DNA of 60,061 nucleotides, taken from assembly GCA_964513285.1 (NCBI GenBank), contig CAZEML010000001.1, forward strand, positions 6,702-66,762. The letters are read 5' to 3'. This document shows, in pieces, positions 12,157-38,657 of the stretch. The translations under genes were made by a program, and so were the position numbers. Within the stretch, counting starts at the first letter, position 1; every line of letters starts with the position of its first letter. The stretch comes from an uncultured Candidatus Nemicrothrix sp. (GTDB taxonomy: Bacteria > Actinomycetota > Acidimicrobiia > Acidimicrobiales > Aldehydirespiratoraceae). The notes under the pieces are model-generated. The model was given only the letters and a program-made list of their open reading frames with translations. It was not told where the DNA came from and made no database searches.

Positions 12157-13163
12157 CCGGTCACGTTCCGCGTCACCGCGACGATCGACCCGGCGCCGTG
12201 GTCGGTGACGAGCAACCGATCGCCGTCGGCGACGAGGTGCTGGGGTCGATCGAAGACGAGATCGAGTGGTTCGGGCGCGGCGCCGGCGTCGGCCGGGTCG
12301 AGGGACACCGTCACGAGCCGTTGCTCCACCCAGAGGGCGACCACGAGCTGCGTCCGATCCCACGGTGCGACGGCGAGCCCGGTCGGTGTCGCACCGACCC
12401 CGAGGATCGCTTGCGAGTTCGGGACGCCGGCACACGGGTCGACGACACCGGACTCGACCACCGGTCGGTTGTCGTCGACACAACTCGGCCACCCGTGGTT
12501 GCTGCCCTCGGCGACCGCGACGATCTCATCGGCGGCGCGGATGTCGTCGTAGCTGCCGTCGGTCATCTCGGTCGACCACAGCACTCCGGCGTCGTCACGA
12601 ACGTGGGCGTAGGCGTGCTTGAACCCGAACGCGACCTGGGTGACCTGCCCTGACGCGTCGATGGCCCACAGGGCGCCCGAGATGTCGACCGGCGACTCGC
12701 CCGCGCTCGTCGGCGTGCGCCGGGTCGTCCCCGACGTGTCGAAGAGCAGTCGATCGCCGTCGACGGTGAGCGTGCCTTCGGAACGCCCGTTGAACGCGAG
12801 GTTCTCCACGACCACCTCACGGTCAGAACCGTCCAGCGGACCGCGGGTGAGGCGGCGTTCCTCCATCACCCAGAGCTCGCCGGCGAAGACCGCGACCCCG
12901 GTCGGTTTCGTAAGCCCGTCGAGGACGACGACCGGCGCGGCATCGAGATCGCCGGGGTCGAGGCGAAGGACCTGGCCGGTGCCGTCGTCTTCCGCGCCGT
13001 TCAACTGCGCCACGAACCAGGCATCGTCGGTGACCGCGAGTTGGGTGGGGCGATCGAGACCGTCGACGACGACCACCGCCGCGAACGGCTCGACCGGTTC
13101 GTCGCTTCCACAGCCGGCCGCGAGAACGCTCGTGAGCGCGAGGGCGGAGAGCACTCGCCTCAC
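12153..13163 (-). CDS. Secreted lipoprotein, PQQ-dependent sugar (sorbosone/glucose) dehydrogenase-like beta-propeller
   Basis: MRRVLSALALTSVLAAGCGSD (lipobox). GSNHGWPSC motif and overall repeat character resemble the soluble glucose/sorbosone dehydrogenase family. Confidence 0.5.
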   Translation of the reverse strand: MRRVLSALALTSVLAAGCGSDEPVEPFAAVVVVDGLDRPTQLAVTDDAWFVAQLNGAEDDGTGQVLRLDPGDLDAAPVVVLDGLTKPTGVAVFAGELWVMEERRLTRGPLDGSDREVVVENLAFNGRSEGTLTVDGDRLLFDTSGTTRRTPTSAGESPVDISGALWAIDASGQVTQVAFGFKHAYAHVRDDAGVLWSTEMTDGSYDDIRAADEIVAVAEGSNHGWPSCVDDNRPVVESGVVDPCAGVPNSQAILGVGATPTGLAVAPWDRTQLVVALWVEQRLVTVSLDPADAGAAPEPLDLVFDRPQHLVADGDRLLVTDHGAGSIVAVTRNVTG

Positions 13164-14128
13164 GAGGTGAGGGCGTCAGCGGCAGCTCGCCCCGAGAGGA
13201 AGGCGCCCTCGACCTTCGGACCGGCGAACGCCTCGCCCGCGAGGGCGATCAGCGGCGCGCCACCCCACACCACGGTCGGCTCGGGCCAGACCTCGACCGG
13301 ACCCGCATACCGCCAGCGCTGGACCTGCACCGCGTGCGCCCCGTCGAGATCCGCAGCCGGGCCGAGCAGGTCGCGGGCGGCGGCGACCGCTCGCGCCACC
13401 ACCTCGTCGTCGCTCGCGTCCCAGAGTTCGTCGCTCAACGCATTCGAGAGATGAACCGTCACGGCCGGAACCGCCGAGATGCCCTTCGCTCGATTGTCGG
13501 CGACGAACGCCAGCTCGGGGTGATCGAGGTACTGGGCGCCGCCGTGCCGGGCGAGACCGGTCGGATCGGTCGAGGGCGCCAACAACACCGCGATCGTCGG
13601 CTTGTAGTGGATCTCCGCCAACCGAGTCGCCAGGGCGGGGTCGGGCAGCAGACCACAGAACGCGAGGGTGGCGAGTGCTTGGGGAACCGGTGCGGTGTGG
13701 ACGATTGCGTCGACGGGGTCGGCCGCCAACTCATCGCCGAGATCGAGGATGCGCCGACCCAACTCCGGCCGGAGTCCTGCGTCGTCCGCCATCCATTTGC
13801 ACAGCGAGGTCATGCCCTCGCTGCCACGCCAGCGCGGATAGCCGTCCGGCTCCCGGCTGAACCCACGCGTCCATTCGACGACCGAGCCGGCGTCGACCGC
13901 CGCGGCGATCGTCGTCGCGAACGCGTCGCTGCGCGTGGTGAAGAACTGGGCGCCGTGATCGAACCGGGCTGTCCCGTTCGGCGTCTCGAGTCGCCGCGAC
14001 GCCATGCGACCGCCGACGCCTCGGCCCTTGTCGACGATGCGGATGTCGTCGCGGTCGATGCCGAGCTCGAGCAGTCGGCGAGCGGCAGACAGGCCGGCGA
14101 TACCGGCGCCGATGACGAGGACGCGCAT
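13160..14128 (-). CDS. NAD(P)/FAD-dependent oxidoreductase (amine oxidase / renalase-like)
   Basis: MRVLVIGAGIAGLSAARRL dinucleotide-binding motif followed by DKGRGVGGRM. Stop overlaps the downstream gene start (13160-13163). Confidence 0.65.
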   Translation of the reverse strand: MRVLVIGAGIAGLSAARRLLELGIDRDDIRIVDKGRGVGGRMASRRLETPNGTARFDHGAQFFTTRSDAFATTIAAAVDAGSVVEWTRGFSREPDGYPRWRGSEGMTSLCKWMADDAGLRPELGRRILDLGDELAADPVDAIVHTAPVPQALATLAFCGLLPDPALATRLAEIHYKPTIAVLLAPSTDPTGLARHGGAQYLDHPELAFVADNRAKGISAVPAVTVHLSNALSDELWDASDDEVVARAVAAARDLLGPAADLDGAHAVQVQRWRYAGPVEVWPEPTVVWGGAPLIALAGEAFAGPKVEGAFLSGRAAADALTS

Positions 14129-15738: not shown

Positions 15739-17739
15739 ATGGGATCCGTCGAGACTCGGTCGCCGAGCTCCGCCACGAGCAGCGCCGCCGATCTCAGGGA
15801 CGACCGCTGGGGCGATCGTCGCTGGGTGAGTTCGGCGATCCGGATCCTCGTCGTCGTCATTCCGATCGCCGCCTCGATCGTGCTCACCCGGTGCTACGTC
15901 GCCGTCGTCGACCGCCCGAGCGGATGGCCCGACCAGCTCCCGTTCTGGGTCGGCGCGTTCGTCGTCGCCATTTCGGCCACGACCGTGGTCGACCGGTTCG
16001 CCCGGCGACTGCTCCCCCTCGCTGCGCTGTTTCGGATGTCGCTCGTGTTCCCCGACGAGGCGCCGAGCCGATTCAAGACCGCCCTGCGGCAGGGCAACCC
16101 GCGGAAGCTCGAGGTCATGCTGCTCACCGGGCAGATCACGAGCTCGGGCGAGGCCGCCCAAGCCCTGCTCGGCCTGATCACCCTCGTCGGTGACCACGAT
16201 CGCCTCACCCGCGGTCACTCCGAACGGGTTCGGGCCTACGCCGAACTCATCGGCGACCAGATGGGGCTCGACGCCGACGAGCTCGAGAAGCTCCGTTGGG
16301 GTGCGTTGATCCACGACGTCGGCAAGCTCACCGTGCCGCCGGAGATCCTGAACAAGCCGGGGCGGCCCGACGACGACGAGTGGCAGATCATCCGCTCCCA
16401 CCCCACCGCGTCCGACGCCTATCTCGAACCGCTGCGGGAGTGGCTCGGCGAGTGGGCCTTGGCCGCGACCGAACACCACGAACGGTTCGACGGCCGCGGC
16501 TACCCGAACGGGCTGGCCGGGGAGCAGATCAGTCGAGCCGGTCGGATCGTGGCCGTCGCCGACGCGTTCGACGTCATGAAGTCGGCTCGCAGCTACAAGA
16601 AGCCACTCAGTCCGGCGATCGCCCGTGAAGAGCTGATCCGCAACGCGGGCTCCCAGTTCGATCCCGACGTGGTGCGAGCGTTCCTCGAGGTGTCGCTCGG
16701 CAAGCTCCGAGTCGTCGTCGGCCCGGTGGCGTGGCTCAACGAGCTCGCCTGGGTGATCCGGGTGCCCGAGACGATCTCGACCGCCGTGGTCGCCGCGGCG
16801 GTGTCCGTCGGCACGGTGGTGGCTCCACTCGACGTCGGTGGGCAGGTCGAGACCGCGCCCGTCGAACGGCTGGTGCCGGAGACGACGATCGCCACGACCA
16901 CCACCACACCACTGACCACGACCACCGTCGCGTCACCGGGTCCCACCACCACGGCGAGTACGCCGCCGGCATCGTCCACGACCAGCAGCAGCTCGACGAC
17001 AGCCGCCCCGACGACGACGGTCACCATCGCCGTCGCCACCACCACCGACGCACCCGCGACGACCAGCCCGGTCACCACCGCGGCCCCCACGACGACGGCC
17101 GCCCCCACGACCACCTCGCCTCCCGCACCGACCACGACGGCCGTCGGGTCGACCACCACGGCACCAGCCACCACCGCCCCGCCGACCACCACCGCGGCGC
17201 CCACGACCACGACGACCACGACCATTCCGACCAGCACGACGACCACCCCGCTGCCCGGACTCGGCCTCACCGGCTTCGGCTTCGAGCCGACCGACCCGGG
17301 CGACCTTCCGTCGTCGCTCGCCGACGGCAACCTCACGTCCAACGATCATGTCTTCATCTGGAAGGAGGCGACCGTGGAGTTGGGCGCCTCGATGAACCTC
17401 CGAGAGCCGGGGGTCGGCGGCTGGGTCAACGGCGATGGCGACACCATCGTGACGATCCCCGCCGGCACCAGGCTCTGCGTCTACCACCTCCACGCTGATC
17501 CGAGTTCGGGGGAGCCGGACATGAATGCCGGCATCGACTTCCTCGATCCGGTCGTCGGCCTGACCCTGCGCGAGACCGATCTCGATGCGACGGACCAGTT
17601 CGAGATCGGCGGCGTCGCGTACCACACCGATGGGCTGTGGACCCTCGATCGCCTCAAGGTCGACGGCTCGTATGTCGAACTCGAATTGGACGGCACCGGG
17701 AGCAGCCGAGATCAGCTCCGCATCTTCACCGAGTGCTGA
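15739..17739 (+). CDS. Membrane HD-GYP phosphodiesterase paralog A (2 TM - HD-GYP - TM - Thr/Pro stalk - conserved C-terminal domain)
   Basis: ATG at 15739 preceded by GGAGGG. LIHDVGK (HD) and HHERFDGRGYP (GYP) motifs are intact. Hydrophobic segments lie at the N-terminus and after the HD-GYP domain. A TTTTPLTTTT...APTTT low-complexity linker follows. C-terminal ~155 aa end in SRDQLRIFTEC. The upstream 193 codons of track ORF 15160-17739 overlap the HAD gene and are Arg/Pro-rich. Confidence 0.85.
   Translation: MGSVETRSPSSATSSAADLRDDRWGDRRWVSSAIRILVVVIPIAASIVLTRCYVAVVDRPSGWPDQLPFWVGAFVVAISATTVVDRFARRLLPLAALFRMSLVFPDEAPSRFKTALRQGNPRKLEVMLLTGQITSSGEAAQALLGLITLVGDHDRLTRGHSERVRAYAELIGDQMGLDADELEKLRWGALIHDVGKLTVPPEILNKPGRPDDDEWQIIRSHPTASDAYLEPLREWLGEWALAATEHHERFDGRGYPNGLAGEQISRAGRIVAVADAFDVMKSARSYKKPLSPAIAREELIRNAGSQFDPDVVRAFLEVSLGKLRVVVGPVAWLNELAWVIRVPETISTAVVAAAVSVGTVVAPLDVGGQVETAPVERLVPETTIATTTTTPLTTTTVASPGPTTTASTPPASSTTSSSSTTAAPTTTVTIAVATTTDAPATTSPVTTAAPTTTAAPTTTSPPAPTTTAVGSTTTAPATTAPPTTTAAPTTTTTTTIPTSTTTTPLPGLGLTGFGFEPTDPGDLPSSLADGNLTSNDHVFIWKEATVELGASMNLREPGVGGWVNGDGDTIVTIPAGTRLCVYHLHADPSSGEPDMNAGIDFLDPVVGLTLRETDLDATDQFEIGGVAYHTDGLWTLDRLKVDGSYVELELDGTGSSRDQLRIFTEC
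16880..17250 (+). repeat. Thr/Pro/Ala-rich low-complexity coding repeat (stalk of paralog A)
   Basis: Runs of ACC/ACG/CCG/GCC codons encoding TTIATTTTTPLTTTTVASPGPTTTAS...APTTTTTTTIPTSTTTTP. Confidence 0.9.
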
Positions 17740-17763: not shown

Positions 17764-17789
17764 GAGACTCAGGATGAATTCCTGAGTCT
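17764..17789. promoter_or_regulatory. Perfect 10-bp inverted repeat upstream of furA (candidate FurA operator, or terminator of the preceding gene)
   Basis: AGACTCAGGA (17765-17774) - TGAAT - TCCTGAGTCT (17780-17789). Sits in a locally AT-richer stretch flanked by two GAATTC sites, 26 nt after the paralog A stop and ~40 nt before the furA start. Confidence 0.45.
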
Positions 17790-17830
17790 GACTCTTGACC
17801 AAGTCCAGAATCGGTGCTGTACTCCCCGAC

Positions 17831-18256
17831 GTGAGCGACTCGACCGGGCCCGACATCGCGCAGGAACTGCGCGACCACGGACTCCAGGTGACCGCCCAGC
17901 GCATCGCCGTGATGGAGGCCGTCACCGGCCACCCCCACACCACGCCTGATGAGCTGGCCGAAGTCGTCCGCAACAAGATCGGGTCGATCTCCCGCCAGGC
18001 GGTGTACGACACGCTCGGGGTCTTCGTCGAGAAGAACCTCGTCCGTCGGATCCAGCCGAGCGGATGGGTTGCCCGGTACGAGGCGCGGGTGGGAGACAAT
18101 CACCACCATCTCGTGTGCCGAGGGTGCGATCTGATGTATGACATCGACTGTGCCGTGGGCTACACGCCGTGTCTCACCGCTGACGACGACCATGGGTTCG
18201 TGATCGACGAAGCCGAAGTCGTCTACTGGGGCATGTGCCCCGCCTGCCAGGCCTAG
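17831..18256 (+). CDS. furA: Fur-family peroxide-responsive regulator (FurA type)
   Basis: [24 protein letters not shown] winged helix, [10 protein letters not shown] and C-terminal CPAC. Lies immediately upstream of katG as in mycobacteria and streptomycetes. GTG 17831 is preferred over the TTG at 17795 used by the track, so the start is uncertain. Confidence 0.8.
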
Positions 18257-18319
18257 CCCGGCCGGGGCCGCTCCGTGGTCCCCACCCCTCACCGCAGCAA
18301 CAGAAGCAAAAGGAATCAC

Positions 18320-20461
<2,142 letters not shown>

Positions 20462-20490: not shown

Positions 20491-20550
20491 CGAGTGATCT
20501 GCAGCTCGACTGCAGCGAGTGATCTGCGGCGCAGCCGCAGCAAGTGACAG
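20490..20550 (+). repeat. 25-nt tandem repeat (about 2.4 copies), each unit with its own small palindrome
   Basis: GCGAGTGATCTGCAGCTCGACTGCA (20490-20514) and GCGAGTGATCTGCGGCGCAGCCGCA (20515-20539), then GCAAGTGACAG. Units contain CTGCAG..CTGCAG and CTGCGG..CCGCAG stems. The third partial unit includes the annotated GTG of paralog B. Confidence 0.8.
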
Positions 20551-22454
20551 ACACCCCGTCGGTTGGCTTCGGTCACCGGCGGGGTGTCGTCGTTTTGGTG
20601 GTCGAACGAGCCTGGATCCGGACGGTGTTCGGCCGATGGGAGACGGTGACCATCACCGATGGGACGGCCGTCGCCACCGCGGCCGACTTCGACGAAGAGC
20701 GCTGGAAGGATCGCCGGCTGACCAGCTGGTCGATCCGCCTCGTCGCGGCGGCGCTGCCGTTGCTCGCCGCCGCGGTCGTCACGGCGCTGCACCTGTCGGT
20801 GTTCGAGCGTCCCGCCGACGCGCTGCCGCTGGCCGCGTTCTGGGCTGGGGTACTCGCCGGCGCGGCCGTCACCGCGGTGTTCCTCAGTCGATGGACGCGC
20901 CGGCTGTTGCCGCTGGCCGGGCTCTTCCGCATGACGCTCGCCTTTCCCGGCGAGGCGCCGAATCGGTTCGCCGTCGCCCTCCGGGAGACGAATGCCGGCC
21001 GGCTCGAAACCCAGCTGATCGCGGGCTCGACCGACCCGCACGCCTCCGCGGCCCGCAACCTCATTTCGCTGGTCGGTCTGCTGCGGCACCACGATCACGC
21101 CACCCGCGGCCACTCCGAACGGGTCGCGACCTATGCGGCCTTGATCGGTGAGCAGATGGGGCTGAGCCCCGACGAGATCGACAAGCTGCGGTGGGCCGCC
21201 CTCATTCACGACATCGGCAAGCTGTCGGTGCCGCCTCGCGTCCTGAACGCGGTGGACCCGCTGAGCGACGAGGACCATCTCCTCATCCGCAACCACCCGG
21301 TCGCCGCGACGGCATACCTCGGGGTGGTGTCCGCCTGGCTCGGCGAGTGGGCCTTGGCGGGTTTGGAGCATCACGAACGCTGGGATGGCTCGGGCTACCC
21401 GGCCGGACTCCGCGGCGACGCGATCGGGCGCGCCGGTCGGATCGTGGCGGTCGCCGACGCCTACGACGTCATGACCGCGGCGGCGAGCTACCGAAGCCCA
21501 CTTCCGGTCGGTCAGGCCCGTGAGGAGTTGGCTCGCTGTGCCGGCACCCAGTTCGACCCGGCGGTGGTGCACGCGCTCCTGCAGATCCCCCACCGGCGCC
21601 TCCGCCTCCTGCTCGGTCCGTCCGGGTGGCTGAACGACCTCGCGTGGATTCCGCGCCTCTCGACGGGAACGAAGATCGCCATCGGCACGGCGATCGCCAC
21701 ACTCGGGGTGGCCGCGGGGACGGCCGTGCTGCTGGACCCGACGCCGACCACCGGACCCGAGCTCGCGGCCGAACGGGTGGTGGAGGACGGCACGACCACG
21801 ACCACCACGACGACGACCAGCCAACCGGCGACGAACGTCCTGGGTGAGACCGCCGTGGAAGAACCGGCGGCGGATCGTCCGAGCGCACCACCGCTCGACC
21901 TGCCCGAGACGACGATTCCGCACCGAACGCCGACGACCACCACGACACCGCCACTGGTCGCGTTGGCGACGGTGTCCGAGCCCACCGGGGTCGGTTTCGT
22001 CCTCATCGACCCGTCCGACCTGCCACGGCACCTCGGCGACGGGGAGCTCACCTCGAACGACCACGCCTTCGTGTGGTTCGAGCCGTCGACGACGCTCGAC
22101 ACCGACGTCCAGGTGAACTCGATCGGCGACGGTGGCGTGTTCGCCGGCGACTCCACCACGACGACCGTGCTTTCCGGCGGCGTGACCGTGTGTCCTGCGT
22201 TCGTCCATGTCGACCCTGCCGACTCGCTCGAAGCGGTCGTCGTCGAACTCGACTTCGGGGTCGCGCCGCTCGGGATCGTGCTCCGAGGCGAAGACCTCGA
22301 CGCCACCCGAAGCTTCGGGGTCGAGGGCGTCGACCACCGCAGCGACGGGATGAGCGCTGACGACGTCGGCTCGATCGACGGGACGACGATCCGCCTGCTG
22401 CTGACCCACAGCGTCGCGGGCCGCGACCAGCTCCGGCTCTTCTTCCCCTGCTGA
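20544..22454 (+). CDS. Membrane HD-GYP phosphodiesterase paralog B
   Basis: Same architecture as A: RWKDRRLTSW, TM segments, RRLLPLAGLFRMTLAFPGEAPNRF, LIHDIGK, HHERWDGSGYP, TTTTTTTTTS / TPTTTTTPP linker, C-terminal domain ending GRDQLRLFFPC. Start uncertain: in-frame GTGs at 20625 and 20646 would match the N-terminal length of the paralogs better. Confidence 0.8.
   Translation: MTDTPSVGFGHRRGVVVLVVERAWIRTVFGRWETVTITDGTAVATAADFDEERWKDRRLTSWSIRLVAAALPLLAAAVVTALHLSVFERPADALPLAAFWAGVLAGAAVTAVFLSRWTRRLLPLAGLFRMTLAFPGEAPNRFAVALRETNAGRLETQLIAGSTDPHASAARNLISLVGLLRHHDHATRGHSERVATYAALIGEQMGLSPDEIDKLRWAALIHDIGKLSVPPRVLNAVDPLSDEDHLLIRNHPVAATAYLGVVSAWLGEWALAGLEHHERWDGSGYPAGLRGDAIGRAGRIVAVADAYDVMTAAASYRSPLPVGQAREELARCAGTQFDPAVVHALLQIPHRRLRLLLGPSGWLNDLAWIPRLSTGTKIAIGTAIATLGVAAGTAVLLDPTPTTGPELAAERVVEDGTTTTTTTTTSQPATNVLGETAVEEPAADRPSAPPLDLPETTIPHRTPTTTTTPPLVALATVSEPTGVGFVLIDPSDLPRHLGDGELTSNDHAFVWFEPSTTLDTDVQVNSIGDGGVFAGDSTTTTVLSGGVTVCPAFVHVDPADSLEAVVVELDFGVAPLGIVLRGEDLDATRSFGVEGVDHRSDGMSADDVGSIDGTTIRLLLTHSVAGRDQLRLFFPC
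21740..21960 (+). repeat. Thr/Pro-rich low-complexity coding repeat (stalk of paralog B)
   Basis: ACG/ACC runs encoding DGTTTTTTTTTSQP ... HRTPTTTTTPP. This is the shortest stalk of the four. Confidence 0.85.
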
Positions 22455-22528
22455 CCGGGTTCGGCACGCGACGACGGGTAGGTCATGCGCCCCATTGAGC
22501 GCGGGGGTGCCCGTGCCGATGGAGTTCC

Positions 22529-24502
22529 GTGCGCACAACAGGAAGCGCGGCGACCACCAGCGCCGCCGATCTCACCGAGCACCGGTGGGCGGCCCGGAGA
22601 GTCCTGAGCTGGACGCTGCGCGCCGTCGTCATCGTCATCCCGGTGGCGGCAGCCCTCGCCGCCACCCGGCTCTACCTCGGCGTCTTCAGCCGACCCGACG
22701 CGCTCCTCCCCCAGGTCGCCTTCTGGCTCGGTGCGCTCGTGCTGTCCGTCGCCGCGTCGATCGCAGTGGAGCGATGGTCGCGGCGACTCCTGCCGCTCGC
22801 CGTGCTGTTTCGGATGTCGTTGGTCTTCCCCGATGAAGCACCGAGTCGCTTCCGGGTCGCACTTCGTGAGGGCAACTCCAAGAAGCTCGACCTCAGCGCC
22901 GAAGGCAGCGCCGCGCAGAATCTGGTGACGCTCGTCGGGGTGCTCAGCCGTCACGATCGCCTGACCCGCGGCCACTCCGAACGCGTTCGCGCCTACGCCG
23001 AGTTGATCGGCACGGAGATGGGGCTCGAGCCCGAGGAGCTCGAGAAGCTCCGGTGGGGCGCGCTGATCCACGACATCGGCAAGCTGACCGTGCCCCCGGA
23101 GCTGCTCAACAAAGCCGGCAAGCCCACCGACGAGGAGTGGCAGATCATCCGAGCCCACCCAGCGGCGTCGGAGGCGTACCTCGGCGCGATCTCCCCATGG
23201 CTCGGCGAGTGGGCCAAGGCCGCCGAGGAACATCACGAGCGCTGGGACGGTGGCGGATACCCGGCCGGGTTGGCGGGTGAAGAGATCAGCCGAGCTGGAC
23301 GCATCGTCGCCGTCGCCGACGCCTACGACGTGATGACGTCAGCCCGCAGCTACAAGCAGGCGCTGAGTCCCTCACTCGCGCGCGAGGAGCTCGCTCGTAA
23401 CGCCGGCAGCCAGTTCGACCCCGAGGTCGTGCGGGCGATGCTGCGCGTCTCGCTCGGCAAGCTCCGCCTGGTCCTCGGACCGCTCGGTTGGCTGAACGAG
23501 TTGGCGTGGGTCTCTCAGGTGCCGCAAGCCGCAACGACGGCTGCGGTCACCGCCTCGACGGCCGCCATGGTCAGTGTCGGCGCCGTCATCGCCGTCGAGC
23601 CACCGGCCGAACCGGCCGAAGCGGCCGCGGTCGAACGCGTCGTCGAGATCGACGAAGACGCTCCATCCACGACCACCCTCGTGGCCCAACCGACCACCAC
23701 GCTGACCGCCATCGGCGTGGAGCCGTCAGCAGCACCGAGCACCACGACAACGACGACCTCGCCCGCTTCCACCACGACGACCACCGGGGCACCGACCACC
23801 ACGCTCGCCGCCGTTGCGGCCGGACCGGCGGTCACCACCACCACGACGTCGCCCGCACCGGCGCCGACGATCCCGACCACGGCACCTACGCCGACCACGA
23901 CCACCGTGCCGCCCACCACGACCGCGCCGACGACCACCGCTGCGCCAGCCACGACGACGACCGGGGCACCGACCACGACCACCGTGCCGCCCACCACGAC
24001 GCCGCCCACAACCGTGCCCGTCGCGCCGGACCCGACCGGATCCGGCTTCGTCATGGTCGACGTCGCCAGTCTCCCGGCGCACCTCGGCAACGGCCAGCTC
24101 ACCTCGAGCGACCACATGTTCGTCTGGTCAGAGGGCGCCAAGATCGTGGCCGCACCGGTGACGCTGCGATCCTTCACCGACGGTGAAGGTTTTGACGGGT
24201 CGAGCAACGCGACGGTGACCGTTCCGAGCGGCACCTGGGTGTGCACGTACTTCGTGCACTACGACCCCGACTGGATCGTCGATGATCGAAGCATCGAACT
24301 GGACTTCGGCACCGTCCCCCTCGGCTTCGCGATGCAAAACAGTGACCTCGACGCCACCCATGGCTACGGCGCGCCGATCGATCACCGAACCGACGGCCTC
24401 GGCGTCGCGGACACCGGCGAGGTCCAGGGCACGTCCATCACCTTTACGTTCGACTACAGCTTCTTCGGGCGAGACCAGGTCCGGATCTTCCTCCCCTGCT
24501 GA
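22529..24502 (+). CDS. Membrane HD-GYP phosphodiesterase paralog C
   Basis: GTG start 74 nt after the B stop. Has HRWAARRVLSW, TMs, RRLLPLAVLFRMSLVFPDEAPSRF, LIHDIGK, HHERWDGGGYP, a long STTTTTTSPASTTTTTGAPTTT... stalk, and a C-terminal domain ending GRDQVRIFLPC. Confidence 0.85.
   Translation: MRTTGSAATTSAADLTEHRWAARRVLSWTLRAVVIVIPVAAALAATRLYLGVFSRPDALLPQVAFWLGALVLSVAASIAVERWSRRLLPLAVLFRMSLVFPDEAPSRFRVALREGNSKKLDLSAEGSAAQNLVTLVGVLSRHDRLTRGHSERVRAYAELIGTEMGLEPEELEKLRWGALIHDIGKLTVPPELLNKAGKPTDEEWQIIRAHPAASEAYLGAISPWLGEWAKAAEEHHERWDGGGYPAGLAGEEISRAGRIVAVADAYDVMTSARSYKQALSPSLAREELARNAGSQFDPEVVRAMLRVSLGKLRLVLGPLGWLNELAWVSQVPQAATTAAVTASTAAMVSVGAVIAVEPPAEPAEAAAVERVVEIDEDAPSTTTLVAQPTTTLTAIGVEPSAAPSTTTTTTSPASTTTTTGAPTTTLAAVAAGPAVTTTTTSPAPAPTIPTTAPTPTTTTVPPTTTAPTTTAAPATTTTGAPTTTTVPPTTTPPTTVPVAPDPTGSGFVMVDVASLPAHLGNGQLTSSDHMFVWSEGAKIVAAPVTLRSFTDGEGFDGSSNATVTVPSGTWVCTYFVHYDPDWIVDDRSIELDFGTVPLGFAMQNSDLDATHGYGAPIDHRTDGLGVADTGEVQGTSITFTFDYSFFGRDQVRIFLPC
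23665..24030 (+). repeat. Thr/Pro/Ala-rich low-complexity coding repeat (stalk of paralog C)
   Basis: Repeated PTTT / APTTTT units, e.g. GAPTTTTVPPTTT occurs twice. Confidence 0.9.
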
Positions 24503-24552: not shown

Positions 24553-26406
24553 GTGGCACGAGGGACTTCCACGGGGCAGCGCTGGCGCGACCGTCGTTTC
24601 GTCAGCTGGGGGCTGCGGCTCGTCGTCTTCGCCGCGCCGATCGCCGCTGGCGTCCTCGCGGTGTGGGTGTACACGAGGTTCGTCGATCGGCCGGCCGCGT
24701 TCTTCGCCCAGCTCCTGTTCTGGCTCGTCGCGATCGCGATCGCCGTGGTCGCGGGGCTCGCCGTCGACCGCGTCACCCGGCGGCTCTTGCCGGTCGCCAT
24801 GCTGTTCCGAATGTCGCTGGCCTTCCCCGGCGAGGCCCCCAATCGGCTCGCCCTCGCATTCGGGAAGGGCCCGGTCTCGGCGTCGGCACTGGAGTCGACC
24901 ACCAAGCTGAGCAGCGACGACACCGCCGCGCGACATCTCCTCGCCCTCGTCTCGATCCTCGCCCGCCACGACCCGCGAACGGGTGGCCACTCCGAACGAG
25001 TCCGGGCCTACGCCGACATGATCGCGACCGAGATGGGACTGTCGCCCGCCGCGCTCGACCGCGTGCGCTGGGGCGCCCTGATCCACGACATCGGCAAGCT
25101 GTCGGTCCCGCCCGAGATCCTCGGTGGCGGCGACCGTCCATCGCCGGAGGAGTGGGCGATGATCCGCGACCACGCGATCGGGTCCGAACCGTTCCTGTTC
25201 GCCGTCACCGACTGGCTGGGCGACGGCGCCCTCGCGGCGGTGCAGCATCACGAACGCTGGGACGGTGCCGGCTACCCGGACGGCCTCGCCGGCGACGAGA
25301 TCAGCCTCGTGGCTCGCATCGTCTCCGTCGCCGACACCTACGACGCGATGACCTCGACCCGCAGCTACCGGGAGCCGTTGCGTCCGAGCATGGCTCGCGA
25401 ACAGGTCGCCCGACAGGCCGGCGCCCAGTTCGACCCGAAGGTGGTCGCCGCGTTCCTCGACGTACCGGTGTGGCGACTCCGTCTCGTCCTCGGACCCCTC
25501 GGCTGGCTGAACGAGTTCTTGTGGTTCACCCGACTGCCGCACGCCGCGACCGGCGCTGCCGTCACCGCCGCGGTGGTCGGCGTCTTCGGCCTCGGGGGCG
25601 CGATCGTGTTCTCGTCCCCCGCCGACTCCTCCGATGGCGACGAGGACGACGTCGTCGCGCCGGTCGAGACGAGCACGACGACCACCAGCTCCACCACGAC
25701 GACCAGCACGTCCACCACCACGACCCAGCCGCCGGCGACGACCACCCCGACGACGACCTCGATCGTGCTGACCACCACCTCGACCTCGACGACGACCACG
25801 AGCACCACCACGACGACCACGACGGTGGCGCCGACCACGACCGCGGCTCCTCCACCGACGACCACTGCTGCACCGCCGACCACCACCACGACGACGACCA
25901 CCACCACGACCCTCGCCCCGACCCCGCCCGAGCCGACCGGGACCGGGTTCACGATCGTCGACCCGGCGACCCTTCCGGCCGACCTCGGCGACGGCGAGCT
26001 CACCTCGGACACCGACGTGTTCGTGTGGGCGGAGGGCATCGCCACCACCGCGGCCGACATCGAGCTCCGCTCGTTCACCGACGGCGTCCCCGTGCCGGGC
26101 GACAGCGCGACGACCGCCACGCTCGCGTCCGGCACGCAGGTCTGCACCTACCTCGTGCACGCCGACCCGATCGGTGCGGCGACCCCGTTCACCACCGAGC
26201 TCGACTTCGGCGTCGTGCCCCTCGGCTTCGCGTTGACGACACTCGATCTCCAAGACACCGACGAATTCGAGATCGACGGCGTCGACCATCAGCTCGATGG
26301 GTTCGAGAGCACCGACGTCGTGACCGTCGACGGCACCATGATCACGATCGACCTGGTCTCGACCGCGGGCAGCCGCGATCAGGTCCGGATCTTCATTCCC
26401 TGCTGA
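24553..26406 (+). CDS. Membrane HD-GYP phosphodiesterase paralog D
   Basis: GTG start 50 nt after the C stop. Has QRWRDRRFVSW, TMs, RRLLPVAMLFRMSLAFPGEAPNRL, LIHDIGK, HHERWDGAGYP, a TSTTTTSSTTTTSTSTTTTQPPATTTPTTT... stalk, and a C-terminal domain ending SRDQVRIFIPC. Confidence 0.85.
   Translation: MARGTSTGQRWRDRRFVSWGLRLVVFAAPIAAGVLAVWVYTRFVDRPAAFFAQLLFWLVAIAIAVVAGLAVDRVTRRLLPVAMLFRMSLAFPGEAPNRLALAFGKGPVSASALESTTKLSSDDTAARHLLALVSILARHDPRTGGHSERVRAYADMIATEMGLSPAALDRVRWGALIHDIGKLSVPPEILGGGDRPSPEEWAMIRDHAIGSEPFLFAVTDWLGDGALAAVQHHERWDGAGYPDGLAGDEISLVARIVSVADTYDAMTSTRSYREPLRPSMAREQVARQAGAQFDPKVVAAFLDVPVWRLRLVLGPLGWLNEFLWFTRLPHAATGAAVTAAVVGVFGLGGAIVFSSPADSSDGDEDDVVAPVETSTTTTSSTTTTSTSTTTTQPPATTTPTTTSIVLTTTSTSTTTTSTTTTTTTVAPTTTAAPPPTTTAAPPTTTTTTTTTTTLAPTPPEPTGTGFTIVDPATLPADLGDGELTSDTDVFVWAEGIATTAADIELRSFTDGVPVPGDSATTATLASGTQVCTYLVHADPIGAATPFTTELDFGVVPLGFALTTLDLQDTDEFEIDGVDHQLDGFESTDVVTVDGTMITIDLVSTAGSRDQVRIFIPC
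25670..25935 (+). repeat. Thr/Ser/Pro-rich low-complexity coding repeat (stalk of paralog D)
   Basis: Almost pure ACC/ACG/AGC/CCG codon runs encoding (S/T)TTTT units. Confidence 0.9.
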
Positions 26407-35309: not shown

Positions 35310-38300
35310 GTGCCTCGCACGTCTCGTGTTCGCCAGCGTTCGTTCGCCTCATTCATCGTGGTGGCGATGACGGCGGCGTTGCTCGCCGGCCCGAGTCAGT
35401 TCGCCGTCGCGGCCGCGCCGTGGGATCAGCTGGGTGTCGATCTCGACGGCGACGCCAGCAACGACCGCGCCGGTACGTCGGTTGCGTTGTCGGCTGACGG
35501 CACCCGGATGGCGGTCGGCGCGACGCGCGGTGGCGTCTCCGGTGGCGGCACCGGCTACGTACGGGTCTTCGAATGGTCGGGAACCGGGTGGGTTCAGCTC
35601 GGTGCGGACCTCGAAGGCGAGGGGGCCGAAACCGGCTTCTCGGTCGCGCTGTCCGGGAACGGCAACCGGGTGGCGTTCGGTGCCCGTCTGAACAGCGGCA
35701 ACGGGACCTTCGCGGGTCACGCGCGGGTCTATGACTGGAACGGAACCGCCTGGACGCAGGTGGGTGCCGATGTCGACGGGCAGGCCCAGTTCGAACAGAT
35801 CGGGTATTCGATCGCACTCTCTGAAGACGGCCAGGATCTCGTCGTCGGCGGCGTGGGCGCCGCGTCGAACGCCGGCGTGGCGCGGGTCTACAACTGGAAC
35901 GGAACCGCCTGGACCCAGACCGGCGCCGACATCACCGGCGACGCCAGCGGCGACATCTCCGGCTCGTCGGTGGCGATGTCGGCGAACGGCAACCGGGTCG
36001 CCGTCGGTGCCCCTGGCAATGACGGCACCGGCGCGAACGCCGGCAACGTCCGGGTCTTCGACCTCTCCGGCTCGACGTGGGTGCAGGTCGGAAGCGACAT
36101 CGACGGCGAAGCCGAAGCCGACTTCTCCGGTCGATCGGTGTCGCTCTCCGCCGATGGTGCTCGCCTCGCGGTGGGCGCCCCGAAGAACGGCGGAGGCGGA
36201 ACCGAAGCGGGCCACGTCCGGGTCTACCAGTGGTCGGGCGCGGCATGGGTCCAGCTCGGTGCCGACCTCGACGGACAAGCCGGTGGCGATCAAGCAGGCG
36301 CTTCGGTCGCGTTGTCCGAAGACGGCACGCGGGTCGCGATCGGTGCGACCGGAGCCGGTGCGGGAACGGTGCGGGTCTTCCAGTGGTCAGGCTCTGCATG
36401 GGTGCAGGTGGGCGGGAACGTGGATGGTGAGGCCGAGGGTGATTTCTTCGGTTTCTCGCTCGACCTCTCCGCCGACGGCACGGCGTTCGCCGCCGGGGCG
36501 ACCAGCAATGCCGCGAACGGCGCCAGCTCGGGTCACGCCCGTGTGCACGGTGCCGTGACCGCGACGCCGGTCCCCGGCGCACCCACCAACGTGTTGGCCA
36601 TCGCCGCCGACGCCGAGGTCGCCGTGTCGTGGACGGCGCCATCCGAAGTGGGTGGCTCACCGATCACCGGCTACACCGCGACCGCATCCCCCGGTGGTAC
36701 AAGTTGCACGACGACCGGCGCGTTGAACTGCACCGTCGGCGGGCTCACCAACGGCACCGCCTATTCCTTCACCGTCACCGCCACGAACTCCGACGGCACC
36801 GGATCCCCGTCCGACGGCTCGGTGTGGGTCACACCCGCCGCTGCGCCCGACGCACCGAGCAGTGTGTTCGGCACTCCGGGCGACAGTGAGGCGACGGTCA
36901 CCTGGCTCGCGCCCGAGACCAATGGCGGCGCGGCGATCACCACCTACACCGTCACCGCATCACCGGGTGGCGCGACCTGCTCGACCAGCGGCTCGCTCAC
37001 GTGCATCGTGCCGACGCTGACCAACAGCACGCCGTACACGTTCACGGTGACGGCGACCAACAGTGTCGGAACCAGTCCGGCGTCGAACGCTTCGGATCCG
37101 GTGACACCGTTGCCCGTGCCCGGTGCACCCACGACGGTCAACGCCACGCCGGGAAGCGGGCAGGCGACCGTGAGCTGGGCCGCCCCCGCCGACGCGGGCG
37201 GGTCGGCGATCATCGCCTACACCGTCACCGCATCGCCGGGCGGGTCGCGGTGCTCCACCAGTGGAGCGACGAGCTGCACCGTCATCGACTTGACCAACGG
37301 CACCGCCCACACGTTCACCGTCACCGCGACGAATGCGATCGGCACCGGCCCGGCATCGGTCGCGTCGTCGCCCGTCACGCCCGTCGGCGTGCCCGACGCA
37401 CCGACCAACGTCACCGCCATCGCAGGTGACACGACCGCCGACGTGAGCTGGAACGTACCCGTGTCCGACGGCGGCAGCGACCTCACCGGCTACACCGCCA
37501 CCGCCGCACCAGGAGGCGCGTCGTGCACCACGACCGGGACGGTGAGTTGCACGATCAGCGGCCTCACCAACGACGTCATCCACACCGTCACCGTCACTGC
37601 GAGCAACGCACTCGGCACCGGCCCCGGATCGACGCCCTCGGATGCCTTCACGCCGACCGGCCCCGACGAGGATCCGGTCGATCCCGACCCGCCCGCCGAG
37701 CCGCCTGCGGTCGACCCCGACGGGATCTCGATCGACCCGGCCGACGACGAGGCGACCGTCTCATGGGAAGCGCCGGCCGACCCGGGCGGCGACATCGACG
37801 GCTACACCGTCACCGCGTCGCCTGGTGGCGCCGCCTGCACCACCAACGGGGAACTGACCTGCACCGTCACCGGGCTGGTGAACGGGACCACGTATGAGTT
37901 CACCGTGGTCGTCGTGGTCGACGGCCAGCAGAGCGCGCCGTCCACCGCGACCGGCCCCCTCCCGCCCGCCGAAGATCCGCCGGCCGACGACCCGCCCGCG
38001 GAGGATCCACCTGCCGAAGACGGGGGTGGCACCGCGGCGGTGGGAGACGACGGCGGCGCGACCCAAGGCGACGCCGTCAGCCCGATCGGGCCCTGCCCCA
38101 CGCCGTTGCTGCCCTTCACCGACGTCGGCAACGTCATCTCGACGGCCGACGTCGCCTGTATCTACGGGCTCGGCATCACCGCCGGCACCTCGCCCACCAC
38201 CTACTCCCCCGACAACCCGGTCGACCGCGACCAGATGGCGTCATTCCTCGCCCGCCTCTGGCGAGCCGCCGACCTCGACTGTCCTGCGGTGACCGCCTCG

Positions 38301-38657
38301 GCCTTCACCGATCTGGCGACGACGATCTCGCCGGCGGACGTGTCGTGCATCTGGGGTCTCGGGATCACCGCCGGCACCTCCCCGACGACCTACTCCCCGG
38401 ACAACCTCGTCGACCGCGACCAGATGGCGTCGTTCCTCGCCCGCCTCTGGCGAGCGACCGGGCGGCCGTGCCCGACACCGCTGCTGCCCTTCACCGACAT
38501 CGGCAACGTCATCTCGACCGCAGACGTCGCGTGCATCTACGGCCTCGGGATCACCGCCGGCACCTCCCCGACGACCTACTCCCCCGACAACCTCGTCGAC
38601 CGCGACCAGATGGCGTCATTCCTCGCCCGCCTCTGGCGAGCACTCGGCGAGAGCTGA
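35310..38657 (+). CDS. Large cell-surface protein: signal peptide, 7-blade FG-GAP-like beta-propeller, 5 fibronectin type III domains, acidic Pro linker, 3 SLH domains
   Basis: N-terminus MPRTSRVRQRSFASFIVVAMTAALLAGPSQFAVAAAP (signal). Seven repeats of ...G.(V/A)RV(F/Y).W.G..W.Q.G.D.DGE... Five units with VSWTAP / VTWLAP / VSWAAP / VSWNVP / VSWEAP plus GYT(A/V)TASPGG..C...G...C...GLTNG..Y.F.V.A.N. EDPPADDPPAEDPPAED linker. Three units FTD.GN.IS.ADV.CI(Y/W)GLGITAGTSPTTYSPDN.VDRDQMASFLARLWRA (SLH-like). Confidence 0.8.
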   Translation: MPRTSRVRQRSFASFIVVAMTAALLAGPSQFAVAAAPWDQLGVDLDGDASNDRAGTSVALSADGTRMAVGATRGGVSGGGTGYVRVFEWSGTGWVQLGADLEGEGAETGFSVALSGNGNRVAFGARLNSGNGTFAGHARVYDWNGTAWTQVGADVDGQAQFEQIGYSIALSEDGQDLVVGGVGAASNAGVARVYNWNGTAWTQTGADITGDASGDISGSSVAMSANGNRVAVGAPGNDGTGANAGNVRVFDLSGSTWVQVGSDIDGEAEADFSGRSVSLSADGARLAVGAPKNGGGGTEAGHVRVYQWSGAAWVQLGADLDGQAGGDQAGASVALSEDGTRVAIGATGAGAGTVRVFQWSGSAWVQVGGNVDGEAEGDFFGFSLDLSADGTAFAAGATSNAANGASSGHARVHGAVTATPVPGAPTNVLAIAADAEVAVSWTAPSEVGGSPITGYTATASPGGTSCTTTGALNCTVGGLTNGTAYSFTVTATNSDGTGSPSDGSVWVTPAAAPDAPSSVFGTPGDSEATVTWLAPETNGGAAITTYTVTASPGGATCSTSGSLTCIVPTLTNSTPYTFTVTATNSVGTSPASNASDPVTPLPVPGAPTTVNATPGSGQATVSWAAPADAGGSAIIAYTVTASPGGSRCSTSGATSCTVIDLTNGTAHTFTVTATNAIGTGPASVASSPVTPVGVPDAPTNVTAIAGDTTADVSWNVPVSDGGSDLTGYTATAAPGGASCTTTGTVSCTISGLTNDVIHTVTVTASNALGTGPGSTPSDAFTPTGPDEDPVDPDPPAEPPAVDPDGISIDPADDEATVSWEAPADPGGDIDGYTVTASPGGAACTTNGELTCTVTGLVNGTTYEFTVVVVVDGQQSAPSTATGPLPPAEDPPADDPPAEDPPAEDGGGTAAVGDDGGATQGDAVSPIGPCPTPLLPFTDVGNVISTADVACIYGLGITAGTSPTTYSPDNPVDRDQMASFLARLWRAADLDCPAVTASAFTDLATTISPADVSCIWGLGITAGTSPTTYSPDNLVDRDQMASFLARLWRATGRPCPTPLLPFTDIGNVISTADVACIYGLGITAGTSPTTYSPDNLVDRDQMASFLARLWRALGES
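35421..36550 (+). repeat. Seven ~55-aa beta-propeller (FG-GAP-like) coding repeats
   Basis: Periodic VRVFEWSGTGWVQLGADLEGE / ARVYDWNGTAWTQVGADVDGQ / ... motifs. The last blade is truncated, consistent with velcro closure by the N-terminal PWDQLGVDLDGD strand. Confidence 0.7.
36570..37940 (+). repeat. Five tandem FN3-domain coding repeats
   Basis: See the CDS evidence. Each repeat carries a conserved Cys pair (C.T.G.L.C). Confidence 0.75.
38100..38645 (+). repeat. Three SLH-like coding repeats with a near-identical 47-nt core
   Basis: GTCGACCGCGACCAGATGGCGTC(A/G)TTCCTCGCCCGCCTCTGGCGAGC at 38220-38266, 38409-38455 and 38595-38641. The surrounding repeat sequence differs mostly at synonymous positions. 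Confidence 0.8.

Follow-up and report, generated by a model that had tools for sequence, protein, structure and literature searches.

Introduction

Many extracellular modules are small, all-beta and attached through a Pro/Thr linker, often as the last domain of the protein, as in the family 2 carbohydrate-binding modules (CBM2; PF00553) that actinobacterial glycoside hydrolases carry. CBM2 modules are stabilized by a disulfide in which one Cys lies at the very end of the module. Cache/dCache, CHASE and similar sensors of membrane-bound cyclic di-GMP (c-di-GMP) enzymes lie N-terminal to the catalytic domain, between two transmembrane (TM) helices, and are coupled to it through continuous helices. 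Here we analyze a C-terminal domain (CTD) of about 156 residues encoded in a 60,061-nucleotide stretch of an uncultured Candidatus Nemicrothrix sp. of the Acidimicrobiia (contig CAZEML010000001.1, positions 6,702 to 66,762; hereafter the window). It occurs in four tandem plus-strand paralogs of common layout: two N-terminal TM helices (TM1-TM2), an HD-GYP domain, a third TM helix (TM3), a Thr/Pro stalk, and the CTD, which ends in Cys-TGA.

By analogy, the CTD would work most like a CBM2-type terminal module. It shares the all-beta composition, the Pro/Thr linker and the terminal position, its disulfide is predicted, and one relative forms the C-terminus of a glycoside hydrolase family 44 (GH44) enzyme. 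Yet it falls outside the carbohydrate-binding module (CBM) families: it has no Pfam match to CBM_2 or any other CBM, is longer (about 156 residues vs about 100), and has its partner Cys in mid-domain rather than at the N-terminal end. Its carrier is a membrane-bound signaling enzyme, and glycan binding by it would be a guess. Like Cache and CHASE domains, it is presumed to be an outside input domain of a membrane-bound c-di-GMP enzyme. In contrast to them, it stands behind the catalytic domain, at the C-terminal end of a flexible stalk (84-146 residues), and it has no sequence match to them.

The CTD is a real, undescribed extracytoplasmic domain family, and the HD-GYP proteins studied here use it as one among several exchangeable outside heads. 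On balance, and with some reservation, we favor a reading in which it forms a stalked extracellular head, closed by a Cys-Cys disulfide, that serves as a ligand-binding or sensing input for the HD-GYP enzyme. Full-text literature searches for HD-GYP proteins with Acidimicrobiia, or with extracellular C-terminal domains, returned nothing relevant.

A domain family outside the profile libraries

A sequence-only reading of the window had reported that the four C-termini align without large gaps. They do so in frame in four plus-strand open reading frames (ORFs), over 162 columns of which 38 are invariant and with small gaps only. Pairwise identity is 36-50% (36-41% to copy 1), the copies find one another by tblastn at E 1e-27 to 1e-43, and a hidden Markov model (HMM) built from them matches the six-frame translation of the window at four places and nowhere else. 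These E-values and the four HMM places put the similarity far beyond chance. The shared motifs described earlier are essentially right, with two exceptions: ELDFG is GIDFL in copy 1, and DLDAT is DLQDT in copy 4. The intervals agree to within a base or a codon, although the in-frame start is 21966 for copy 2 and 24032 for copy 3, not 21965 and 24031. The domain start at 17251 needs to be moved, as the folded domain of copy 1 begins at about 17269 and the first six residues of the earlier interval belong to the stalk. Cys is indeed the final residue in all four copies, each ORF terminating in TGC-TGA, but the positions assigned to it (17737 and its counterparts) are those of the stop codons, and the Cys codon lies one earlier (e.g. 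17734-17736).

The CTD had been left unassigned to any named domain, and library searches agree. The four copies matched no family in Pfam-A or NCBIfam at E<=10, apart from a chance match to KaiC (E 0.14). When 55 diverse members were compared with both libraries one by one at E<=1, no family was common to more than two of them. The only CBM among these results, CBM_15 in one of the 55 members (E 0.14), is at chance level, and neither profiles nor folds linked the CTD to a CBM family.

An HMM search and a structure comparison had been proposed as checks. Run exhaustively, the former returned at least 503 representatives (clusters at 50% identity) at E<=1e-3, 71 of them at E<=1e-10. A word-indexed protein search with CTD profiles was insensitive for this domain and gave 1 and 6 proteins only; the first relative found in this way (P0001) comes from a metagenome-assembled genome (MAG) with the same synteny as the window. 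Across the family, P20, E39, G72, H81, D83, F97, G103, L111, Y124, D133, D154, and R157 are conserved at 80-100% (numbering of copy 1, counted from 17251). A family of this size that is absent from Pfam-A and NCBIfam and has no detectable relative of solved structure represents a library gap, and defining it would annotate many "hypothetical" surface proteins.

For the structure comparison, AlphaFold2 models were built from 5 sequences (predicted local distance difference test, pLDDT, 87.0) and from 55 (pLDDT 94.5; predicted template modeling score, pTM, 0.90). The better model is all-beta, with 13 strands and one short helix. Fold comparison by Foldseek covered PDB and BFVD. Neither model had a PDB neighbor at E<=0.001 (best E 0.17-0.22, TM-score <= 0.30), and the better model had none in BFVD at that threshold (best E 0.04, TM-score <= 0.26). 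On these models, the CTD may possibly represent a new fold.

Sequence comparison with PDB, using a profile of the 55 sequences, also gave no significant match. The best was rusticyanin (E 1.1-1.4, 28 residues), which aligns over the IPAGTxVC strand. This match, at E about 1, raises the idea of a metal site (cupredoxin-like, Zn or Fe) made up of the two Cys together with the conserved His and Asp in C-x-Y-x-V-H-x-D-P; the CTD would then be a redox or metal sensor. The fur and katG genes between paralogs 1 and 2, which are kept in two related MAGs, would fit such a sensor. We nevertheless consider it highly improbable. The rusticyanin match is at chance level, and neither cupredoxins nor other metalloproteins appear in the Foldseek lists shown, so a rusticyanin-like identity was rejected. 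H81 (80%) and D83 (89%) are conserved across the family in members with neither Cys and thus do not form one unit with the Cys pair, which makes a Cys metal site with H81/D83 unlikely. C76 and H81 are also five residues apart in one strand, or about 17 Å as estimated from standard strand geometry.

The two cysteines covary

Both Cys positions were readable in 148 CTD instances. Both residues are present in 66 and neither in 71, while 3 have only the internal and 8 only the end Cys (Fisher p ~1e-28, uncorrected for phylogeny). The pair is thus mostly kept or lost together, as would be expected of a disulfide-stabilized extracytoplasmic domain, and Actinobacteria use disulfides in exported proteins. 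Among the best 120 full-length relatives, all 36 HD-GYP-linked CTDs end in Cys or in Cys plus 1-3 residues, and 35 of the 36 have two Cys and no more, with a spacing of 85-97 residues. Paralogs 3 and 4 have no Cys anywhere in the protein other than the internal and the terminal one of the CTD. The question whether homologues always end in Cys therefore has a divided answer: HD-GYP-linked members do, at or within 1-3 residues of the end, but about half of the wider family has neither Cys.

The CTD model places the internal Cys within strand 74-82 and ends its last strand (154-161) one residue short of the terminal Cys. Antiparallel pairing of these strands, judged from the model strand assignments only, would bring the two Cys side by side. 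An intradomain disulfide joining them is the most likely arrangement. The terminal Cys would be bonded to the one in the central C-x-(Y/F)-x-V-H-x-D-P strand, and the bond would fasten the last beta-strand to the rest of the domain, as would suit a domain exposed outside the cell.

The earlier reading had left two roles for the Cys open, a disulfide or a site of modification or attachment. Covariation backs the former. In the latter, the terminal Cys would be lipidated, linked to the envelope by a thioether or thioester, or joined to a second head by an intermolecular disulfide. In its favor, all four paralogs and most HD-GYP-linked homologues have Cys as their final residue, and 8 CTD instances carry the end Cys without the internal one. 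We still judge it improbable. The end Cys covaries with the internal one (66 instances with both vs 11 with a single Cys), and relatives extend beyond it by 1-10 residues, by a PEP-CTERM tail, or by over 200 residues (P0045, P0066, P0119, P0072). It holds the domain boundary even where 382 residues (P0045), a PEP-CTERM tail (P0119), or 10 residues (P0072) come after it. The end Cys is therefore a feature of the domain end and not of a free C-terminus, and a free carboxylate beside the thiol is not required; it is terminal in the window because the CTD is the last domain of the protein. Neither a sorting tail, hydrophobic or basic, nor a lipobox-like context is visible in the window proteins. 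In the DQxR motif, Gln is conserved with or without the Cys, which argues against a Cys-Gln thioester. With the covariation and the position of the second Cys at the domain end, we favor the intradomain disulfide over an attachment site. As an explanation of a terminal Cys, this is conventional.

Several specific candidates were set aside. A C-terminal sorting or attachment signal (LPXTG-like or tripartite) is not seen, as no hydrophobic segment follows the CTD and the final strand reaches the penultimate residue. The window proteins end ...RIFxxC-stop with no PEP-CTERM tail, unlike an exosortase substrate. A Cys-Gln thioester adhesin domain has no Pfam match, and the DQxR Gln is found also in members with neither Cys. 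Selenocysteine read-through after Cys-TGA was rejected because what follows in frame is unrelated from one paralog to the next and TGA is locally the most frequent stop codon, ending 5 of 9 neighboring genes; selenocysteine insertion sequence (SECIS) elements were not searched for.

The membrane HD-GYP chassis

The coordinates of the four genes and their parts are given in Table 1. The window is high in GC (65-71%), and G+C at third codon positions (GC3) is 0.86-0.91 across the four paralog genes, which identifies them as real coding frames. Paralog 1 probably starts at the ATG at 15739 (the mechanical ORF runs from 15160), and the public gene call for paralog 2, of 609 residues, would place its start at GTG 20625. 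Long antisense or off-frame ORFs overlie the stalk regions at 16593-17342, 21512-23236, 23515-24246, and 25365-26147 (all on the minus strand); they were rejected as genes and attributed to ACC/ACG/CCG-rich repeats in high-GC DNA.

Table 1. Coordinates of the four HD-GYP-CTD genes and of their encoded parts (positions in the window)
Feature	Position	Strand	Remarks
Paralog 1 gene, membrane HD-GYP with stalk and CTD	15739..17739	+	HD_5 E 2.7e-34; GC3 0.89
HD-GYP catalytic domain, paralog 1	16180..16671	+	PF13487 HD_5 match
Predicted TM3, paralog 1	16774..16830	+	Kyte-Doolittle 19-aa mean 1.97
Thr/Pro-rich stalk, paralog 1	16831..17268	+	146 aa, 56% T+P
CTD copy 1	17269..17736	+	156 aa, all-beta; Cys codons 17476-17478 (internal), 17734-17736 (terminal)
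Paralog 2 gene	20544..22454	+	HD_5 E 2e-31; matches P0167
HD-GYP domain equivalent, paralog 2	21078..21566	+	PF13487 HD_5 match
Predicted TM3, paralog 2	21675..21731	+	Kyte-Doolittle 19-aa mean 1.95
Thr/Pro-rich stalk, paralog 2	21732..21983	+	84 aa, 44% T+P
CTD copy 2	21984..22451	+	Cys codons 22191-22193 (internal), 22449-22451 (terminal)
Paralog 3 gene	22529..24502	+	HD_5 E 8.5e-38; P0162 100% identical over 62% of paralog 3
HD-GYP domain equivalent, paralog 3	22940..23428	+	PF13487 HD_5 match
Predicted TM3, paralog 3	23540..23596	+	Kyte-Doolittle 19-aa mean 1.93
Thr/Pro-rich stalk, paralog 3	23597..24031	+	145 aa, 55% T+P
CTD copy 3	24032..24499	+	Cys codons 24242-24244 (internal), 24497-24499 (terminal)
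Paralog 4 gene	24553..26406	+	HD_5 E 4.9e-35
HD-GYP domain equivalent, paralog 4	24946..25443	+	PF13487 HD_5 match
Predicted TM3, paralog 4	25555..25611	+	Kyte-Doolittle 19-aa mean 2.19
Thr/Pro-rich stalk, paralog 4	25612..25935	+	108 aa, 63% T+P
CTD copy 4	25936..26403	+	Cys codons 26143-26145 (internal), 26401-26403 (terminal)

The carrier proteins are members of the HD-GYP family. All four match HD_5 (PF13487) at E 2e-31 to 8.5e-38 (109-130 bits vs a cut-off of 27.2) and HD (PF01966) at E 1e-14 to 2e-18, and the catalytic motifs ALIHD(V/I)GKL and (E/Q)HHER(W/F)DGxGYP are intact in each translation. From these motifs, the enzymes probably break down c-di-GMP. Each paralog begins with two hydrophobic segments separated by a very short loop, and the HD-GYP domain follows. 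A strongly conserved segment, (R)RLLPLAxLFRMSLxFPxEAPxRF, comes directly after TM2 and ahead of the HD-GYP domain, in the four paralogs as well as in relatives (approx. 15900-16000, 20850-20950, 22750-22850, and 24760-24860) and is a possible juxtamembrane coupling element.

Hydropathy predicts that the stalk and CTD are extracytoplasmic, because the HD-GYP domain sits between TM2 and TM3 and the catalytic domain is taken to be cytoplasmic. If the third hydrophobic segment were not a membrane helix, the stalk and CTD would instead remain in the cytoplasm as an intracellular regulatory or interaction domain, and the composition of TM3, Ala/Gly/Thr-rich and only moderately hydrophobic, leaves some room for this. 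We find it barely plausible. Thr/Pro stalks and a conserved Cys pair point outside, as do the CTD relatives, which follow pilin leaders, occur on GH44 and ricin-B proteins, or precede PEP-CTERM tails. Big_9 or cadherin-like domains occupy the same place in sister proteins.

One of several interchangeable heads

A full-length search with paralog 3 found 2571 relatives at E<=1e-20; the named ones are Acidimicrobiia or Actinomycetota MAGs, and Acidimicrobiia are a group known here almost entirely from metagenome assemblies. Head types were counted in the best 120 of the 2571. The CTD is present in 36, a Big_9 (PF17963) head with or without cadherin-like domains (PF17892, PF17803) in about 40, and a pentapeptide-repeat head in 6. 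About 38 have neither a CTD nor a recognized C-terminal domain; some of these are truncated, and some may hide undescribed heads. A Thr/Pro-rich stretch is found in 82 of the 84 relatives that have no CTD, so the stalk belongs to the chassis, while the C-terminal head is interchangeable. The sister proteins with other heads (P0172-P0272, from Acidimicrobiia) share the TM1-TM2, HD-GYP, TM3, and stalk arrangement and the C-terminal position of the head. Their heads differ from the CTD in belonging to unrelated sequence families, none of which it matches, and no Ig-like or cadherin-like solved structure is among its Foldseek neighbors.

Within the window, the paralog CTDs have diverged more than the membrane and catalytic cores in all six pairs (36-50% vs 49-67% identity). 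This is as expected for heads with diversifying specificity.

The closest CTD relatives retain the Cys pair and end ...(R)DQ(I/V/L/M)R(I/V)(F/I)TxC, with Cys last or followed by 1-3 residues. Among 26 Cys-type relatives with enough upstream sequence, 16 are HD-GYP proteins of the same layout. Whether the domain always follows a Thr/Pro stalk had been raised by the sequence-only reading; it mostly does, with Thr plus Pro at 35% or more in the preceding 60 residues in 22 of the 26. Other carriers include a TadE-like protein and an N_methyl pilin-like protein (P0060, P0065), the GH44 glycosidase mentioned above (P0135), and a protein in which the CTD follows a ricin-B lectin domain (P0057).

A further carrier, P0017, is a single-pass protein of 307 residues with a short N-terminal region, one TM helix, a P/T/S/E-rich linker, and a Cys-terminated CTD outside. 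An extracytoplasmic function (ECF) sigma-factor gene lies directly upstream and overlaps the start of the P0017 gene by 8 bases (both within L007, 1652-3032). By this gene position only, P0017 is a putative anti-sigma factor with the CTD as its sensor; it has no anti-sigma match in Pfam. Its layout resembles that of ECF anti-sigma factors with extracytoplasmic domains, whereas the window proteins are HD-GYP enzymes.

The distant relatives are mostly PEP-CTERM surface proteins, a class linked to exopolysaccharide-producing bacteria. They carry the domain singly or in tandem, with neither Cys, and are annotated at source as "hypothetical protein". Those found with the CTD profile at E 1e-7 to 1e-13 consist of a signal peptide, a CTD-type domain, and a PEP-CTERM tail (PF07589/TIGR02595), often with ...DQ(I/V)R(V/I)(I/L)T directly before the tail. 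This ending is what small PEP-CTERM proteins have in common with the family. Their NCBIfam neighbors (floc_PepA NF033554, NF038129, EDSAP-1 NF041538, THxN, and FxDxF) are sub-threshold, far below the cut-offs at 22-35 bits vs 50-100, and a large part of the matching falls on the PEP-CTERM tag itself. The window proteins differ from these relatives in having the Cys pair and no PEP-CTERM tail.

Proposed role of the CTD head

Our data suggest that the CTD is an independently folding, all-beta extracytoplasmic module of about 156 residues at the tip of a long Thr/Pro stalk, which would emerge from the third TM helix of a three-TM, c-di-GMP phosphodiesterase-type HD-GYP protein. Most likely it is an input module that binds a ligand or a surface. 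An extracytoplasmic binding or input head is indicated by the putative anti-sigma context, by the swapping of heads, and by the adhesin-like nature of the alternative heads. The ligand would be extracellular or on the cell surface, with a glycan or matrix polymer as the leading guess, given the GH44 and ricin-lectin contexts and the linker-plus-terminal-module layout. Because the stalk is flexible and the HD-GYP domain is held between TM2 and TM3, coupling would most likely occur through tethering, clustering or dimerization, or tension on TM3, rather than through a rigid conformational relay. Ligand class, coupling mode, and sensor role are all inferred.

Several points weigh against this proposal. 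The Cys covariation is uncorrected for phylogeny, and the Cys-bearing sequences may largely form one clade. The disulfide follows from co-occurrence rather than from chemistry or model coordinates. TM3 is moderately hydrophobic only (Ala/Val/Gly/Thr-rich; Kyte-Doolittle 1.9-2.2) and was assigned by hydropathy. HD-GYP activity and substrate are assumed from motifs only, and the CTD matches no carbohydrate-binding family by profile or fold. Finally, a flexible stalk of 84-146 residues makes regulation of catalysis by binding hard to see, and the head could be a passive anchor that does not signal.

Passive anchoring is a serious rival, although we consider it unlikely. Here, the CTD would be a spacer, anchor, or adhesin, and HD-GYP activity would be regulated elsewhere. 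No defined conformational change can pass along a stalk that is long and of low complexity, and the CTD also occurs on non-signaling proteins such as pilins, the GH44 enzyme, and PEP-CTERM surface proteins. However, it recurs on two unrelated signaling scaffolds, HD-GYP and the putative anti-sigma factor beside an ECF sigma gene, and there is systematic exchange of head types while the HD-GYP chassis stays conserved. In addition, TM2 and TM3 hold the catalytic domain between them, so TM3 could have an effect by moving or clustering.

A more specific alternative is that the CTD is a new CBM which anchors the HD-GYP enzyme to a wall or matrix polysaccharide or reports its presence. It has the classical layout of a Pro/Thr linker and a C-terminal all-beta module, stands at the C-terminus of a GH44 enzyme and beside a ricin-B lectin domain, and has PEP-CTERM proteins as distant relatives. 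We hold this tentatively as a possibility, while leaning against it. No profile or fold match connects the CTD to a CBM family, only two glycan-related architectures occur among roughly 26 assessable Cys-type proteins, and the conserved polar residues E39, D83, D133, D154, and R157 might just as well belong to a structural salt bridge or to a metal site.

The most far-reaching form of the input-module reading is doubtful, and we advance it as speculation built on the structure models. Here, a new-fold CTD would found a class of stalked surface-contact or ligand sensors that feed HD-GYP enzymes through TM3 and, in relatives, control release of an ECF sigma factor. If so, binding or pulling at the surface would lead to c-di-GMP hydrolysis, and the stalks would span the cell wall of monoderm Acidimicrobiia and would probably be glycosylated. 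This would amount to modular "head-on-a-stalk" input, in which one kind of head (CTD, Big_9/cadherin-like, or pentapeptide) can be swapped for another.

Exchangeable outside heads that stand on long Thr/Pro stalks behind the catalytic domain point to an unusual c-di-GMP input architecture. Swappable stalked heads behind HD-GYP nonetheless fit familiar principles, and no established idea is overturned. If the CTD head senses a surface or matrix polymer, it would offer a handle on the decision between attached and free-living states.

Genomic neighborhood

Paralog 1 is separated from paralogs 2-4 by a fur-family regulator and a katG catalase-peroxidase gene (17795-20461). A search for related loci with a narrow CTD alignment gave two MAG contigs only. 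The order HalD-like, HD-GYP-CTD, Fur, KatG, HD-GYP-CTD is kept in two related Actinomycetota MAGs (contigs L001 and L005). One of these MAGs has two rather than three HD-GYP-CTD copies after katG. The array is thus conserved, while its copy number varies.

Just upstream of fur, in the region 17765-17811, lies a perfect 10-bp inverted repeat, AGACTCAGGA-TGAAT-TCCTGAGTCT (17765-17789). It is followed by TCTTGAC(C/T)(A/G)AGTCCAGAAT, an imperfect 19-bp palindrome, and this second motif is kept upstream of fur in the two related MAG loci. By its sequence, it is a candidate FurA/PerR-type operator. The true fur start probably lies further downstream, because the mechanical TTG start at 17795 falls inside the motif and the MAG Fur proteins have 141-142 residues vs 153.

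Upstream of paralog 1 are a HalD-like gene (PF23169; 14166-15023) and a flavin amine-oxidase-like gene (13160-14128), both on the minus strand. These genes also adjoin the cluster in MAG locus L005. Elsewhere in the window, a plus-strand ORF of 1115 residues (35310-38657) encodes a large cell-surface protein with FG-GAP repeats, five fibronectin type III domains, and S-layer homology (SLH) domains. SLH domains bind wall polymer, so their occurrence in this ORF suggests such a polymer.

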